Program-made: the position numbers and the translations under genes | The notes under the pieces: generated by a model | Told to the model about the DNA's origin: nothing | Databases searched by the model: none | Seen by the model: only the letters and a program-made list of their open reading frames with translations | Origin: Thermoplasmatota archaeon | GTDB taxonomy: Archaea > Thermoplasmatota > E2 > DHVEG-1 > B18-G2 | DNA length: 33,084 nt | Assembly: GCA_029259115.1 (NCBI GenBank) | Contig: JAPDJO010000092.1 | Coordinates: forward strand, 1 to 33,084 | Direction: 5' to 3' | In this document: piece by piece, positions 28,332 to 32,973 of the stretch | How positions within the stretch are numbered: the stretch's first letter is position 1 | How the letters are laid out: the number at the start of each line of letters is the position of its first letter

Positions 28332-30230
28332 ATGGAAGAGCATTATGTTCGTATCTTAAAAGAGAGATTAGACACAGAGAATTACAACAAGTTGATGGCC
28401 ATAAGAAATTCCTATCTCCACAAGTTCATTGCAAAGTACATAGATCTATGTAACCCTGACAGTGTATTCGTGTCTGATGGATCTGAAAGGGATCAAAGAT
28501 ACATAAGGGAAGCAGCGATAAAGAATGGAGAGGAAATTCCCTTAGCAATAGAAGGGCATACTGTCCACTTTGATGGATACTATGATCAAGCAAGAGATAG
28601 AGAAAATACAAAGATTCTGGTGCCAAAGGGAGTCTATCTTGGTGAAAATATAAGAACAATGGATAGAGAAGAGGGGTTAAGAGAGATACATGAGATAATG
28701 AAAGATATAATGAAAGGACATGAATGCTATATCTGTTTTTATACGCTAGGTCCTGAAAATTCTGTATTCACAATACCTTGCCTTCAGATTACTGATTCAA
28801 GCTATGTTGCACACAGTGAAAACATCTTATATCGACAGGGGTACAAGGAGTTTATCAGAAGAGGAGAAACAAGTGATTTTTTCAAATTCGTTCATTCGGA
28901 AGGAGAATTGGATGAAAGAAAGACATCAAAGAATATAGAAAAGAGAAGAATATACATAGATCTTGAAGGAGACACTGTTTATTCCGCAAACACCCAATAT
29001 GGAGGGAACACCATAGGGTTGAAAAAACTCGCAATGAGGCTAGCTATAAACCATGCAGCAAAAGAAGGATGGCTGACAGAACACATGCTCATAATGGGTA
29101 TCCATGGTCCGAACGGTAGGGTTACATACTTCACCGGCGCCTTTCCATCGATGTGTGGAAAAACATCTACAGCGATGCTCGAGGGAGAAACCATCGTAGG
29201 AGATGACATTGCCTATATTAGAAGTATAGATGGGATAGCAAAAGCCGTGAATGTTGAAAAAGGTGTCTTTGGCATAATAAAGGGGATAAATAAGAAAGAT
29301 GATCCCATACAATGGAAAGTTCTTCACTCTCCAAACGAGATAATCTTTTCAAATGTTCTCGTAGACGAGAAAGGGAAGGTTTACTGGTCTGGGATGGGTG
29401 AAGATATACCTGATAGGGGCTATAATCACTCTGGAGAATGGTGGAGAGGGAAAAGAGATAAGGAGGGAAAAGAGATTCCTCCATCTCATCCAAACGCAAG
29501 ATTCACAGTTTCTCTAGAGGCTTTTGAAAATCTTGATCCAAGATGGGATGATCCTAAAGGAGTAGAGATAGGAGCCATAGTATATGGCGGAAGAGATTCA
29601 GATACTTGGGTTCCAGTTCAAGAGGCTTTCGATTGGGATCATGGAATCGTAGCAAAAGGTGCCTCTCTAGAATCTGAAAGAACAGCTGCTGTTCTCGGAA
29701 AGGAAGGAGTAAGAGAGTTTAATCCTATGTCAAACCTTGATTTTCTATCCATCCCTATCGGAAGGTACATAGAGATAAATCTAGAGTTTGGGAAAAAGTT
29801 GAGAAGGAAACCGAAAATATTTGCTGTTAATTACTTCATCAGAGATAAAGAAACAGGAGAGTATCTAACAGATAAGGTGGATAAGAAAGTGTGGTATAAA
29901 TGGATGGAGCTTAGAGTTCATGATGATATCGAGGCAATATGGTCTCCAACGGGATATATACCAAAGTATGAGGATCTGAAATCTCTTTTTGATAAAGTTC
30001 TGTCAAAAGATTATCCAGAATCTCTCTACATAAAGCAATTTACGATAAGGATACCAGAGAATTTATCTAAAATAAAGAGGATAAGAAATATCTATAGCAA
30101 GATCAAGAATACCCCAAAAGAGCTGTTTAAGATTCTAGATGAAGAGGAAAAGAGGTTAAAAGAAGTAAGGGAGAAACTTGGAGATTATGTATCCCCAAGG
30201 GATCTAGAAAAGTTAGTACAGAAGCCCTAA
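28332..30230 (+). CDS. pckG: GTP-dependent phosphoenolpyruvate carboxykinase
   Basis: YGGN..GLKK, WLTEHM, GAFPSMCGKTS, VGDDIAY, SHPNARFT, YGGRD, NPMSNLDF. Confidence 0.96.
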   Translation: MEEHYVRILKERLDTENYNKLMAIRNSYLHKFIAKYIDLCNPDSVFVSDGSERDQRYIREAAIKNGEEIPLAIEGHTVHFDGYYDQARDRENTKILVPKGVYLGENIRTMDREEGLREIHEIMKDIMKGHECYICFYTLGPENSVFTIPCLQITDSSYVAHSENILYRQGYKEFIRRGETSDFFKFVHSEGELDERKTSKNIEKRRIYIDLEGDTVYSANTQYGGNTIGLKKLAMRLAINHAAKEGWLTEHMLIMGIHGPNGRVTYFTGAFPSMCGKTSTAMLEGETIVGDDIAYIRSIDGIAKAVNVEKGVFGIIKGINKKDDPIQWKVLHSPNEIIFSNVLVDEKGKVYWSGMGEDIPDRGYNHSGEWWRGKRDKEGKEIPPSHPNARFTVSLEAFENLDPRWDDPKGVEIGAIVYGGRDSDTWVPVQEAFDWDHGIVAKGASLESERTAAVLGKEGVREFNPMSNLDFLSIPIGRYIEINLEFGKKLRRKPKIFAVNYFIRDKETGEYLTDKVDKKVWYKWMELRVHDDIEAIWSPTGYIPKYEDLKSLFDKVLSKDYPESLYIKQFTIRIPENLSKIKRIRNIYSKIKNTPKELFKILDEEEKRLKEVREKLGDYVSPRDLEKLVQKP

Positions 30231-30761
30231 AGATGAGAGTTCTGCTGCTAACTTTTCTACAGCCCTTGATACATCCTCTATCTTCCTTGCTCCGGTGCAG
30301 ACTATCTTTCCAGATCCAAATAGGAGCATAGCAACTCTTGGTTCTTTTAATCTGTAAACTAATCCTGGGAATTGTTCTGGTTCATACTCTACATTTTCCA
30401 AACCTAATCCCATAGCTACGTCATTCAGATTCAGCTCTGTTTCTAGATCAGAGATTGCCACAATATTCTGTATCACAATCTCTGGATTCTCATAAACCTC
30501 TATGCCTAATTCCTTAAGCTTATTCTTTATTATCTCTACGGTTCTCTTCACATCCTCTATGGTTTTTGCACCGGTACAGTTTGCTTTACCGCTTCTGAAT
30601 AAAAGAGTTGCTGTCTTTGGTTCTTTTAATCTATAGACTAATCCTGGGAATTGTTCTGGTTCATACTCTGCTCCTTCTAACTCTTGCGCTATCAGATCAA
30701 GATCTAGCCTGTCGGCAAACGCAGTGGAAGCTACAATATTCTCTACCTCTACTTTTGGCAT
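30213..30761 (-). CDS. tbp: TATA-box binding protein (canonical)
   Basis: Two repeats of NIVA...EYEPEQFPGLVYRL.EP...LLF.SGK..CTGA; all four intercalating Phe present. Confidence 0.98.
   Translation of the reverse strand: MPKVEVENIVASTAFADRLDLDLIAQELEGAEYEPEQFPGLVYRLKEPKTATLLFRSGKANCTGAKTIEDVKRTVEIIKNKLKELGIEVYENPEIVIQNIVAISDLETELNLNDVAMGLGLENVEYEPEQFPGLVYRLKEPRVAMLLFGSGKIVCTGARKIEDVSRAVEKLAAELSSLGLLY
30338..30669. repeat. 53-bp direct repeat inside tbp (30338-30390 and 30617-30669)
   Basis: TTGGTTCTTTTAATCTrTArACTAATCCTGGGAATTGTTCTGGTTCATACTCT; 51/53 identical. Confidence 0.95.
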
Positions 30762-30763
30762 AT

Positions 30764-31288
30764 CTATCCAACCTCCCTTGCTCTTTCAACAACCTCCTCC
30801 AAAAATTTTTCTAAAATACCCCTATCATTTGATCCTGTACAGACTATCTTTCCATTATCAAAAACTAAAGCTATCAACCCGTCTTTACCTCTATAGATAG
30901 CTCCAGGGAACTCATCAGGATTGTAATCTACATTGTCAAGACCGAATGCTAGTCTTTTGATGTCTATCCACTTTCTAGTATCTTTAGATATTATCAGATT
31001 TTTAACCTCGATTTTTGTCCTTTTTCTTGCTTTGATTCCTTTTTCTCTTAGCATGTCAACGATTTTTGCCAGTACTTCTTTAGCCTCGTCCATAGTTTTT
31101 GTACCTGTGCAGATAAACTTACCTTCCTTTGTGAGTATTGTTGAGACTCCTGGAAAATTGATTATCACTCCTGGAAAATTATCAGGGTTATACTTGGCAT
31201 CAACCAATTTTTCAGCTATCATATCTAAGTTAAACTCATTAGCAATCTTTGCTTCAACAATAATGTTCTCTGTAATTACATCCTCCAT
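30764..31288 (-). CDS. Divergent TBP-family paralogue
   Basis: Two TBP repeats: ENII..YNPDNFPG..GKFICTG and KNLI..YNPDEFPGAIYR..LVFDNGKIVCTG. Confidence 0.9.
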   Translation of the reverse strand: MEDVITENIIVEAKIANEFNLDMIAEKLVDAKYNPDNFPGVIINFPGVSTILTKEGKFICTGTKTMDEAKEVLAKIVDMLREKGIKARKRTKIEVKNLIISKDTRKWIDIKRLAFGLDNVDYNPDEFPGAIYRGKDGLIALVFDNGKIVCTGSNDRGILEKFLEEVVERAREVG

Positions 31289-31306
31289 AGAATAGCCCTC
31301 ATGGAG

Positions 31307-31335
31307 TATATAAATACCTTTTATAAAGGTTTTTC
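31307..31335 (-). promoter_or_regulatory. Putative promoter of the TBP pair with two TATA-like boxes
   Basis: Minus strand GAAAAACC-TTTATAAA-AGGTA-TTTATATA upstream of ATG 31288. Confidence 0.55.
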
Positions 31336-31336
31336 C

Positions 31337-32029
31337 TTACCAAACCTTATCGATGTCAAGATCGATATCTTTTTTCAATTTCTTTTTTCTCCTATTCCTC
31401 TCTCTTTCAACCTCATCCAAGAAGCCTCTGAACTCTTCTATTTTATCCTGTATTCTCTTTTCGCAGCTCGCAACAGCAAGCTCACTTTTCGTTTTCTCTA
31501 TCAGGGATCTAGCTATGTCTTGCTTTCTTTTTAGGGCTGGAGGATAATCAAAATTCATAATAGAAGCATATATCTTTTCCATCATATCCAGATATCTATT
31601 TGCCTTGCCAACATCTCCATCTTTCATGGCATCTAAAGAAAATCTTCTTAGCTCTCCTATCGTATCGCATAGTCCTAATAGAAAAGTGACATAAGATATT
31701 TTCATATCATCGGGATCTGGAAGGGGCTTATTCCTCTCTAGATTGTACACGCACTTTGCCTCAACATATTCTTGGGCTGCATTTTCTACATATCCGGCAT
31801 TCTGAAGCTCAGAATGATTCTCTATGAGCTTGTATAGGCTTCTAAGTTTCCTATTGGCTGAATTCAGAGATTTTCTTGCCGATTCGAAATCTCTGTTATG
31901 AATAGACTGGATACATTTTCTACATGATAGGATTATATCTCTGGAAAGAGAAAGGGATTTTTCTCTGATTGAATCTAGCTCATGCATACGGTTTCCTATT
32001 TTATTTAGAATTTCGTCCATTCCTTTCAT
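31337..32029 (-). CDS. Translin/Trax (C3PO) family endoribonuclease
   Basis: QEYVEA and LLGLCDTIGELRR (ExxE and DxxGE acidic motifs), LKRKQDIAR; ATGA overlap with the upstream gene. Confidence 0.9.
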   Translation of the reverse strand: MKGMDEILNKIGNRMHELDSIREKSLSLSRDIILSCRKCIQSIHNRDFESARKSLNSANRKLRSLYKLIENHSELQNAGYVENAAQEYVEAKCVYNLERNKPLPDPDDMKISYVTFLLGLCDTIGELRRFSLDAMKDGDVGKANRYLDMMEKIYASIMNFDYPPALKRKQDIARSLIEKTKSELAVASCEKRIQDKIEEFRGFLDEVERERNRRKKKLKKDIDLDIDKVW

Positions 32030-32973
32030 TCTCTGTTTACCCAATAATCTGGTTCCTCTCCCCTCAGTACCTTCATCACCTGCTCAGCGCATATCGTTCC
32101 TGCTCTGATTTGGGCTTCCTTAGTATTTGCTCCAATATGCGGAGTTAGCACAACGTTATCGAGTTCCAATAATTTGCTTCCCTTTGGAGGTTCTTCCTCA
32201 AATACATCTATCGCTGCACCAGCTATCTTTCCTTCCTTGAGAAATTCATAAAGTGCATCCTCATCAACAACTCCTCCTCTCGCGCAGTTTATTAGATAAG
32301 CTGTTGGTTTCATTAGAGATAGCTTTTCTTTATCTATGAGATGATATGTCTCCTCTGTTTTTGGTATGTGAAGAGATACAAAATCTGATTCTCTCAAAAC
32401 CTCTTCTAAGGTTGCACGCCTGGCGCCCATCTTCTCAGCTTTTTCATCTGTACAGTGAGGAGAGTATACAAGTACATTCATGCCTAGGCCTTTTGCTATC
32501 TTTGCAACATGCTGGGCTATTCTTCCGGAGCCTATTAAACCGAGGGTTTTACCATGCAGTTCTATTCCTTTCAGTTGTTTCTTTAGCCATTCTCCTCTTT
32601 TCATGGAGCTATCTGCTTTTGGTATGAATCTTGCAAGAGCTAACATGTGAGCAATGGCAAGCTCGGCTACGCTAATGGTAGAGCCTGTAGGTGCATTTAC
32701 AACCTTAATTCCAAGCTCTGTTGCTTTCTTCACATCTATGTTGTCTACTCCAATTCCTGCTCTCCCTATGACTTTTAGCTTTCCAGATGCCCCTTTTTCT
32801 ATTATATCTGCTGTGACTTTTGTTCTGCTTCTTACTATCAGAGCATCATAGTCTGCTATCTCATTTAATAGACCATCGTGATCTAGCTCTTCATACTTAA
32901 CTTCAAAACCGTTATTTTTCAGCATCTCTATGGCTTCATCTGCGAGCTTGTCCGTAACTAACACCTTCATCAT
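32026..32973 (-). CDS. D-2-hydroxyacid dehydrogenase, D-3-phosphoglycerate dehydrogenase-like (no ACT domain)
   Basis: IVRSRTKV, GRAGIGVDNID, SVAELA, GSGRIA, NCARGGVVDE, DVFEEEP, TPHIGANT. Confidence 0.88.
   Translation of the reverse strand: MMKVLVTDKLADEAIEMLKNNGFEVKYEELDHDGLLNEIADYDALIVRSRTKVTADIIEKGASGKLKVIGRAGIGVDNIDVKKATELGIKVVNAPTGSTISVAELAIAHMLALARFIPKADSSMKRGEWLKKQLKGIELHGKTLGLIGSGRIAQHVAKIAKGLGMNVLVYSPHCTDEKAEKMGARRATLEEVLRESDFVSLHIPKTEETYHLIDKEKLSLMKPTAYLINCARGGVVDEDALYEFLKEGKIAGAAIDVFEEEPPKGSKLLELDNVVLTPHIGANTKEAQIRAGTICAEQVMKVLRGEEPDYWVNRE

Follow-up and report, generated by a model that had tools for sequence, protein, structure and literature searches.

The window analyzed here is a 33,084-nt stretch (positions 1 to 33,084) of contig JAPDJO010000092.1, from the assembly GCA_029259115.1 of an uncultured Thermoplasmatota archaeon. 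It contains a canonical TBP gene (TBP1) preceded in tandem by a divergent paralog (TBP2). TBP2 is most likely an auxiliary TBP that is co-expressed with TBP1 and has degenerated asymmetrically; it belongs to a family of upstream TBP paralogs that spans the order.

Gene arrangement and expression signals

TBP2 (30764..31288, minus strand; ORF of 174 aa, stop codon included) and TBP1 (30213..30761, minus strand; ORF of 182 aa, stop codon included) are separated only by bases 30762-30763 and share 37% identity in pairwise alignment (59/158, E 7e-38). A search of the genome with PF00352 returned four domain matches, all within TBP1 and TBP2, and no third TBP gene was found by this search (assembly 98.7% complete). 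The ORFs, PF00352 matches, and spacer bear out an earlier sequence-only reading of two TBP-fold genes 2 nt apart. Immediately upstream of TBP2 lies a Translin-family gene (31337..32044, minus strand; PF01997, 38.5 bits), and Translin homologs occur upstream of the TBP pair in most loci of the order; this gene is a conserved neighbor outside the pair and serves as context only.

The region before TBP2 contains a BRE-like purine run, GGAAAAACC (31336-31328, minus strand; part of an element at 31319..31336), followed directly by a first TATA box, TTTATAAAA (31327-31319, minus strand), that is conserved order-wide. A second TATA box, TTTATATA (31307..31314, minus strand), lies 4 nt after the first and 18 nt before the TBP2 ATG. 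The match to this two-box pattern spans 31307-31327; the pattern is present in 27 of the 31 usable loci of the order and has just two matches in the 1.4-Mb genome, the other one (C17:21566) having no obvious gene downstream. The conserved promoter is found upstream of the first gene only. A GAGGG Shine-Dalgarno-like motif (31296..31300, minus strand) lies 7 nt before the TBP2 ATG (31288), and most loci have a GGAGGG motif at the matching place before the upstream gene. Within the element comprising the spacer and the end of TBP2 (30762..30777, minus strand), a GGGAGG Shine-Dalgarno motif (30772-30777) lies 10 nt before the TBP1 ATG; a motif of the GGAGG type precedes the downstream start in nearly all 35 tandem loci. 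The position of this motif inside the end of TBP2, together with the 2-nt spacer, suggests translational coupling of TBP2 and TBP1 within one operon. Metatranscriptome contigs bridge the TBP2/TBP1 junction (30640-31423 and 30715-31741); this RNA evidence is weak, consisting of assembled contigs from two runs of one sample from which transcript, ends, and level are not readable, and stretches of TBP1 without contig cover carry no meaning. From the intergenic gaps, Shine-Dalgarno motifs, and promoter position, we infer that each upstream paralog is co-transcribed with the canonical tbp from an ancestral two-TATA tbp promoter.

Fold and contact residues of TBP2

Both proteins match Pfam PF00352 over two repeats (cut-off 22.9), TBP2 with 106.8 bits (E 5.2e-31) and TBP1 with 199.7 bits (E 5.4e-60). 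TBP2 falls below the cut-off in all 10 NCBIfam TBP models (equivalog/subfamily), its best scores being 150.7 against a cut-off of 255 (NF001597) and 131 against 181 (NF001593), while TBP1 clears these two models (273.4 and 213.8, respectively). The AF2 model of TBP2 (pLDDT 94.9, pTM 0.84) is a pseudo-symmetric saddle in which S1-H1-S2-S3-S4-S5-H2 occurs twice. The top Foldseek matches to this model are archaeal TBPs (TM 0.84-0.88; E 1.6e-16 for 1mp9 and 2z8u), archaeal and eukaryotic TBPs both appear among the matches (TM 0.8-0.88), and the best PDB sequence matches of TBP2 are likewise archaeal TBPs. TBP2 is thus confidently predicted to be a TBP saddle with the complete fold kept.

Every motif difference between the two proteins quoted in the sequence-only reading is present in the sequences and their pairwise alignment. 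The intercalating stretch of the N-lobe reads TLLFRSGK in TBP1 and TILTKEGK in TBP2, so that Thr replaces Phe at N.L5.1, the second intercalating position of this lobe, and TBP2 retains three of the four intercalating Phe residues as compared with four of four in TBP1. The phosphate-contact Arg is replaced by Asn (GLVYRL in TBP1, GVIINF in TBP2), and the stirrups change from YEPEQF/YEPEQF to YNPDNF/YNPDEF. The TFB-contact pair of the C-stirrup (C.L3.2/C.L3.4) is Asn/Asp in TBP2 versus Glu/Glu in TBP1 and in 35/35 downstream copies across the order. The linker of TBP2 reads REKGIKARKRTKIEV; among aligned upstream copies, a basic linker is restricted to the window's genus. Both C-lobe Phe residues are retained, as had been claimed (DEFPG, LVFDNGK), and the C-lobe DNA face is nearly intact, including the intercalating Phe pair, Leu, the basic residue, and Val.

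The significance of these changes is uneven. The TBP of Pyrococcus woesei (1ais/1d3u), which is canonical and TATA-binding, has a YNPEEF N-stirrup, an IICHL stretch without the Arg, and the basic linker VKFKRAPQ. Because all three features occur in this protein, the YNP stirrup, loss of Arg, and basic linker of TBP2 represent normal TBP variation. By this comparison, what is unusual in TBP2 is Thr at N.L5.1 and Asn at C.L3.2. Work reported in PMC7221094 bears on both positions: Phe occupies L5.1 in >90% of TBP lobes, the F116A substitution at N.L5.1 of yeast TBP reduces DNA binding, and Glu residues at C.L3.2 and C.L3.4 contact Arg/Thr of TFB.

Distribution and evolution of the upstream copies

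Of 41 genomes from the same order, 35 carry the tandem pair (three families, 22 genera), which makes TBP2 anything but strain-specific. Among 80 named Thermoplasmata/Thermoplasmatota loci, the pair is present at 22; the search for related loci used TBP1 as its single query. The divergent copy is always first (35/35 loci), and intergenic distances lie between -20 and +51 nt (median 16). TBP1 orthologs aligned from the order are 70-95% identical. The upstream copy has been lost at the syntenic site in three cases (G014, G032, and L085) and is therefore dispensable, while G026 keeps an upstream-type copy at the site without the downstream gene. Genomes retaining the upstream copy, across the three families, are small (0.6-2.9 Mb).

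The 35 upstream copies and two solo divergent ones form one clade (SH-aLRT 99), and an AU test rejects the grouping of family f1's own upstream and downstream copies as one clade (p 0.0024). In a haloarchaeal-inclusive quick tree of 53 rows, the upstream clade branches outside a group that unites the downstream and solo TBPs with those of Thermoplasmatales and DHVE2 (SH-aLRT 96), a placement that may reflect long-branch attraction, an older duplication, or transfer.

Estimates of dN/dS (NG86; 13 pairs with a value) range from 0.08 to 0.38 for upstream copies versus 0.005 to 0.08 for TBP1, with the contrast drawn on the nine pairs with dS < ~1.1; the upstream values are well under 1, as the sequence-only reading had envisaged for a conserved paralog. 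Amino acid substitution is nonetheless ~10-40x faster in the upstream copy than in the adjacent canonical copy (dN, same genome pairs), and end branches measure 0.2-1.5 for upstream copies versus ~0.01-0.08. Both lobes of the upstream copies are constrained (dN/dS 0.05-0.44), with no consistent dN/dS difference between N- and C-lobe among them. The C-lobe only slightly exceeds the N-lobe in overall identity to the partner copy (0.41 vs. 0.36; C>N in 26/32), although the window's own TBP2 is reversed in this respect (0.39 in the N-lobe vs. 0.31 in the C-lobe). Because overall dN/dS and identity differ little by lobe, the lobe asymmetry is confined to specific contact residues.

Across the 35 upstream copies, retention of DNA-contact residues in the N-lobe is 14/35 for F38, 14/35 for F55, and 7/35 for a basic residue at R44; in the C-lobe it is 29/35 for F131, 35/35 for F148, 33/35 for L146, 33/35 for a basic residue at K152, and 32/35 for V154. 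The central N8 is kept in 35/35. Phe losses have occurred repeatedly and independently on the tree, with at least eight changes at F55 and at least five at F38. Position N.L5.1 is Phe in 14/35 copies and otherwise L, T, S, A, I, or M. The sequence-only reading had raised conservation of the exact F-to-T change, which proves to be limited to the window's sublineage: it is common only to TBP2 and its closest ortholog (G004), other members of the same genus having F, or L together with other losses. Six of the 35 copies, which are basal and slow, have the canonical residue at every one of the six signature positions. No conserved residue specific to the upstream family was found, all conserved ones being also present in canonical TBP, and there is therefore no sign of a new specific surface; nor does pI separate upstream and downstream copies (medians 5.0 and 4.8).

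An acidic pair at both TFB-contact positions is kept in only 8/35 upstream copies, and Lys/Arg occupies one of these positions in 13/35. Since the main TFB is conserved (86-99% identical across the order) while these acids are rarely kept, canonical TFB recruitment by the upstream copies looks unlikely in many lineages.

Possible functions

A plausible though still tentative reading is that TBP2 is an auxiliary general factor acting alongside TBP1, docking via its C-lobe with weak kinking and weak TFB engagement. Constraint on its N-lobe appears relaxed, judging from the Thr at N.L5.1 and the missing phosphate-contact Arg. TBP2 would dock through the C-lobe in the minor groove of TATA-like DNA, at the BRE-proximal half, would be poor at kinking and holding the 3′ half, and would engage TFB more weakly than TBP1 does. 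Such properties would make TBP2 an auxiliary factor that works at, or sits on, weak or partial TATA promoters together with TBP1, and not an independently regulated switch.

TBP2 may also be a modulator or antagonist of TBP1 instead of an initiation factor, which we consider possible but rather unlikely. By one route, TBP2 would form a heterodimer with TBP1, encoded in the same operon, via the conserved C-lobe concave face and act as a storage or masking partner; by another, it would compete for TATA boxes or for TFB and build complexes that are unproductive. Feedback on the two-TATA tbp promoter would be conceivable by both routes; within the genome, this promoter is peculiar to the operon (two pattern matches in 1.4 Mb). 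The co-transcription, which appears obligatory, and the likely translational coupling, both judged from gaps and motifs, are consistent with such a partner, as are the retention of just the C-lobe concave residues and the fact that the TFB-contact pair is often lost or reversed in charge although TFB is conserved. Constant co-transcription and TFB-contact loss appear roughly equally compatible with a modulator and with an alternative initiation factor. However, slow evolution would be expected of a protein partnering the near-invariant TBP1 surface, and upstream copies are only ~34-38% identical to one another; moreover, the fully canonical signature of the basal, slow members (6/35) suggests ordinary TBP activity at the start. 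A narrower form of this idea, in which TBP2 is a co-translated TBP-fold regulator that masks or competes with TBP1 via the C-lobe concave face and autoregulates at the second TATA box, is doubtful. If true, such a regulator would be a functional counterpart of the devices that mask TBP in eukaryotes (TBP dimers, TAF1-TAND, and NC2/Mot1); we know of no TBP-directed regulator of this masking type in archaea.

Some observations also run against an auxiliary factor: a fixed-ratio operon would be an unexpected arrangement for a factor conferring alternative promoter selectivity, and the erosion of TFB contacts, lack of family-specific residues, and dispensability of the upstream copy point in the same direction.

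It is improbable that TBP2 is a slowly decaying redundant duplicate, constrained mainly against misfolding and staying open as the leading cistron because its breakage would disturb expression of the essential TBP1. Its very fast evolution, the repeated and independent loss of functional residues, the lack of family-specific conserved residues, and outright loss in a few lineages would all be expected of such a duplicate. Yet dN/dS in the upstream copies is far from neutral with both lobes constrained, the gene is kept across three families in small genomes, C-lobe DNA-contact residues are selectively preserved (as with the invariant F148), the AF2 fold is confident, and G026 keeps the upstream-type copy without its downstream gene.

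A pairing of TBP2 with a dedicated TFB paralog, the two serving a promoter class of their own as an orthogonal TBP/TFB pair, is very improbable: the genome does hold a second, 54%-identical TFB gene (TFB-b, on contig C48), many f2 genomes hold 2-5, and specific TBP-TFB pairs described for Halobacterium provide a precedent (PMC5501381), but the other six f1 genomes (70-96% complete) show at most one TFB with the query used and yet keep the upstream TBP, the extra TFBs of f2 adjoin canonical-like solo TBPs and not the tandem, and the TBP-contact region of TFB-b is unreadable because the contig ends at residue 188.

Whichever role applies, the upstream copies form a natural series from fully canonical to those missing both Phe residues of the N-lobe, one Phe of the C-lobe, and the charges at the TFB-contact positions. 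This series amounts to a mutational ladder for asking what portion of the TBP saddle promoter recognition, bending, and TFB recruitment require, and it bears on the existence of TBP-directed regulation in archaea. Judging from the conserved two-TATA promoter of tbp, TBP autoregulation is testable as well.

Comparison with known systems

Like canonical archaeal TBPs (P. woesei 1AIS/1D3U, Methanocaldococcus jannaschii 2Z8U, and Sulfolobus acidocaldarius 1MP9), TBP2 has a two-repeat saddle, belongs to the ~180-aa length class without extensions, and has retained the central Asn residues together with three of the four intercalating Phe residues, among them the C-lobe pair; it shares the YNP-type N-stirrup and basic linker with P. 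woesei TBP in particular. It differs from them in the Thr at N.L5.1 and Asn at C.L3.2, its NCBIfam scores below cut-off, its faster evolution, and its place as first cistron of the tbp operon.

The closest functional analogy for a TBP with weakened TATA recognition would be metazoan TBPL1/TRF2. Unlike TBPL1, which is separately regulated, TBP2 is operonic with TBP; it is not orthologous to TBPL1 but groups with upstream copies of its own archaeal order, and the N.L5.1 substitution is not fixed in the upstream family. To our knowledge, the TFIIA/TFIIB and TAF-type partners of TBPL1 are absent in archaea. The parallel drawn in the sequence-only reading is apt at the residue level: both proteins keep the TBP fold with a non-Phe residue at N.L5.1 (yeast F116), Thr in TBP2 and Trp in TBPL1 (PMC7221094), and TRF2 is described in PMC4422821 as not binding TATA-box promoters.

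Literature searches found no description of an upstream-tandem divergent TBP arrangement. In the account given by PMC5501381, the extra TBPs of Halobacterium (TbpA-F) and Methanosarcina (TBP1-3) are thought to partition or tune transcription, with roles largely unresolved and no distinct TATA consensus established. TBP2 resembles these as a lineage-specific extra TBP gene in Euryarchaeota; in contrast to them, the extra copy here directly precedes the main tbp in the same orientation throughout the order, is far more divergent than its partner, and displays a lobe-asymmetric erosion of DNA- and TFB-contact residues.

Distribution of the tandem pair

TBP genes were identified in all 41 surveyed genomes of the window's order (22 genera in 3 families: f1, the window's own, f2, and f3). 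ORFs extracted from the loci form a tandem pair in 35 of the 41, so the divergent paralogue (TBP2 in the window) is not strain-specific. The divergent copy is the upstream gene in 35/35 tandems, at 60–220 bits against the canonical TBP of the window (TBP1); the downstream gene is canonical in every case, scoring >277 bits against TBP1 for the 33 complete copies and 216 and 268 bits for two cut by contig ends. Among tandem-less genomes, G023, G025, and G027 have the locus interrupted by a contig end, and G026 carries an upstream-type gene alone at the syntenic site; in G014 and G032 the canonical gene immediately follows the conserved upstream neighbor, indicating loss of the upstream copy. Across the order, the pair is preceded in a conserved arrangement by a 2-hydroxyacid dehydrogenase gene and then a translin-family gene (window 31337–32973, minus strand). 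The translin-family gene matches PF01997 at 38.5 bits and falls below the cut-offs of NCBIfam PRK14562-type models; in the window's family, a GTP-type PEP carboxykinase gene is convergent with the pair.

TBP1 retrieved 80 named public loci, of which 22 include an upstream copy, all from MAGs labelled as Thermoplasmata, Thermoplasmatota, Thermoplasmatales, Methanobacteriota, or Euryarchaeota archaeon; none of the same 80 labelled Acidiplasma, Ferroplasma, Thermoplasmataceae, or DHVE2 does. In 151 genomes sampled across the class, a single TBP gene is the usual state in f4 and f6, the two largest of the remaining families, and no adjacent pair was observed in ten multi-TBP genomes outside the order. 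Of 41 database matches to TBP2, four show 66–99% identity and the next best 36%.

The gene pair and its promoter

TBP2 (31288..30764, minus strand, 174 aa) and TBP1 (30761..30213, minus strand, 182 aa) are adjacent, the TBP1 ATG following the TBP2 stop after two bases. Both are two-repeat proteins by PF00352 (106.8 and 199.7 bits, respectively; cut-off 22.9), with 37% identity to each other. TBP2 falls under the cut-off of all ten curated NCBIfam TBP models (best 150.7 vs 255 and 131 vs 181); TBP1 exceeds two of the ten. AlphaFold2, given 34 aligned upstream copies, models TBP2 as a saddle with high confidence (pLDDT 94.9, pTM 0.84), and the best Foldseek matches of the model are the solved archaeal TBPs 1mp9 and 2z8u (TM 0.84–0.88). 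No third TBP gene was found in the window's genome (1.40 Mb, 94 contigs, 98.7% complete, 5.48% contamination). The TBP1 lobes share 72% DNA identity over 146 nt (30256–30401 vs 30535–30680) and encode identical EYEPEQFPGLVYRLKEP segments; this internal repeat is a break point of public short-read contigs.

The pair is very probably co-transcribed. Across tandems, the upstream stop and the downstream ATG lie −20 to +51 nt apart (median 16), with a GGAGG-type motif ahead of the second start codon (GGGAGG at 30772–30777 in the window). TBP2 is covered, and both of its junctions are bridged, by metatranscriptome contigs from two runs of a single sample (30640–31423 and 30715–31741), though as assembled contigs, with DNA carry-over possible, they are no proof of a transcript.

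The stretch before the first gene is strongly conserved: a BRE-like purine run, TATA1 (TTTATAAA), 3–5 nt, TATA2 (TTTATATA), then GGAGGG. In the window (31307–31336, minus strand), the purine run is followed by TTTATAAAA, 4 nt, and TTTATATA. The strict two-TATA pattern occurs in 27 of 31 usable loci, with near-variants in the other four; four further loci had short or N-filled flanks and were left out. It appears at one of 22 solo TBP genes, itself upstream-type, and has only two matches genome-wide. Counterparts lie at the matching place in loci L005–L052 and L117–L137, and within the order this non-coding motif is better preserved than TBP2 is at the protein level. Because single-copy tbp genes in Thermoplasmatales- and DHVE2-labelled records also have two TATA-like boxes ahead of them, this promoter seems to be the ancestral one of tbp, and the extra copy lies between it and the canonical gene; the two boxes may be a sign of TBP autoregulation.

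Phylogeny and selection

In a quick ML tree of 103 rows (two downstream copies <150 aa left out), the 35 upstream copies and two solo divergent copies form one clade (SH-aLRT 99), within which f3, f1, and f2 split as they do among downstream copies. End branches are 0.2–1.5 changes per site for upstream copies versus about 0.01–0.08 for downstream copies. Adding haloarchaeal TBPs puts the upstream clade outside one that unites downstream, solo, Thermoplasmatales, and DHVE2 TBPs (SH-aLRT 96). A grouping of f1 upstream with f1 downstream copies, chosen post hoc after inspection of the tree, was rejected by the AU test (delta lnL 41.4, p 0.0024).

The expectation from the sequence-only reading that dN/dS would lie below 1 was borne out. 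NG86 estimates for sixteen genome pairs picked for closeness, several saturated in dS, give 0.08–0.38 at unsaturated dS for the upstream gene, far from 1, and 0.005–0.08 for the downstream gene (0.081 vs 0.014 for G002–G003; 0.168 vs 0.028 for G017–G038; 0.229 vs 0.005 for G010–G015). For the window's own pair (G000–G004), the upstream value is 0.143 at a dS of 1.5, near saturation. Constraint on the upstream copy is present in both lobes. These data show that the pair is real and ancient, inherited order-wide, and under purifying selection.

Residue erosion in the upstream copies

The motifs quoted in the sequence-only reading were all found in TBP2 and TBP1, and its Phe-to-Thr change is unusual; the YNP N-stirrup, missing Arg, and basic linker listed alongside are ordinary, since canonical Pyrococcus woesei TBP (1ais/1d3u), aligned to TBP2, has all three (YNPEEF, IICHL without Arg, basic linker). 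Two TBP2 features are out of the ordinary: Thr at N.L5.1, the second N-lobe intercalating Phe position (F55 in TBP1; yeast F116), and the C-stirrup TFB-contact pair C.L3.2/C.L3.4, which is Asn and Asp. According to Ravarani et al. (PMC7221094), L5.1 is Phe in >90% of TBP lobes, F116A reduces DNA binding, and C.L3.2/C.L3.4 correspond to human E284/E286, whose contacts in TFIIB/TFB are one Arg and one Thr.

In the upstream copies the fold persists, as does the DNA face of the C-lobe, while N-lobe intercalating residues and TFB-contact charges have been lost repeatedly. Of the 35 upstream copies (TBP1 numbering), 14 retain N-lobe F38, 14 retain F55, 19 retain K59, and 7 are basic at R44; in the C-lobe, 29 retain F131, 35 F148, 33 L146, and 32 V154, and 33 are basic at K152. 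All 35 have the central N8, and 23 have N99. Across the counted positions, downstream copies vary only by Lys at R137 in two and Ala at T156 in three. Eight of the 37 clade proteins keep all four Phe, six (including TBP2) lack F55 only, six lack F38 only, ten lack both, six lack F131 as well, and one lacks all four; on the tree, at least eight changes at F55 and at least five at F38 are required. Conservation of the Thr itself did not hold: the closest orthologue of TBP2 (G004, 66% identical) has it and the rest of the genus lacks it (I and F in G001; Y, L, L in G002/G003), and upstream copies of three f2 genomes (G018, G021, G035) gained it independently. Acidic residues occupy both TFB-contact positions in 8/35, and a basic residue occupies one of them in 13/35; main TFB identity across the order is 86–99%. 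No conserved residue specific to the upstream family and without counterpart in canonical TBPs was found.

DNA-facing TBP1 residue 61 (GKANCTG; about 30579–30581, minus strand) is Asn in all canonical TBPs of the order and in Thermoplasmatales/DHVE2 outgroup TBPs; upstream copies have V, I, M, or L, never this Thermoplasmata-typical Asn, and the P. woesei equivalent is Val (via its alignment to TBP2).

TFB paralogues

A second TFB gene in the window's genome (G000:C48:3688–4248; locus L146 1135–1698) shares 54% identity with the main TFB and ends with its contig at residue 188, leaving the cyclin repeats unreadable. In f2, extra canonical-like solo TBP genes often adjoin an extra TFB paralogue (G029:C93 3082–4625; G037:C20 9301–11533; G020:C54 19724–21353; G017:C64 8078–9704; G021:C7 86691–88313), which suggests TBP–TFB cassettes separate from the tandem pair.

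Possible roles of TBP2

Our preferred reading, held tentatively, is that TBP2 is an auxiliary general factor: its C-lobe would still dock on TATA-like DNA, the 3' half would be kinked poorly, and the grip on TFB would be weaker. Nearly as likely, if itself doubtful, is a modulator or heterodimer partner of TBP1, favoured by an operon of fixed ratio and by the lost TFB-contact charges; against it, the upstream copies evolve fast and basal members are canonical. A decaying leader cistron is improbable given the dN/dS values and the selective retention of C-lobe residues. Slimmer still is the chance of a dedicated pair with a second TFB, as the query used recovers one TFB each from the remaining f1 genomes.

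Full-text literature searches turned up no account of an operonic, lobe-asymmetric divergent TBP, nor of such a pair in Thermoplasmatota. Multiple TBPs are well known in archaea (PMC5501381). At N.L5.1, where TBP2 has Thr, TBPL1 has Trp (PMC7221094).
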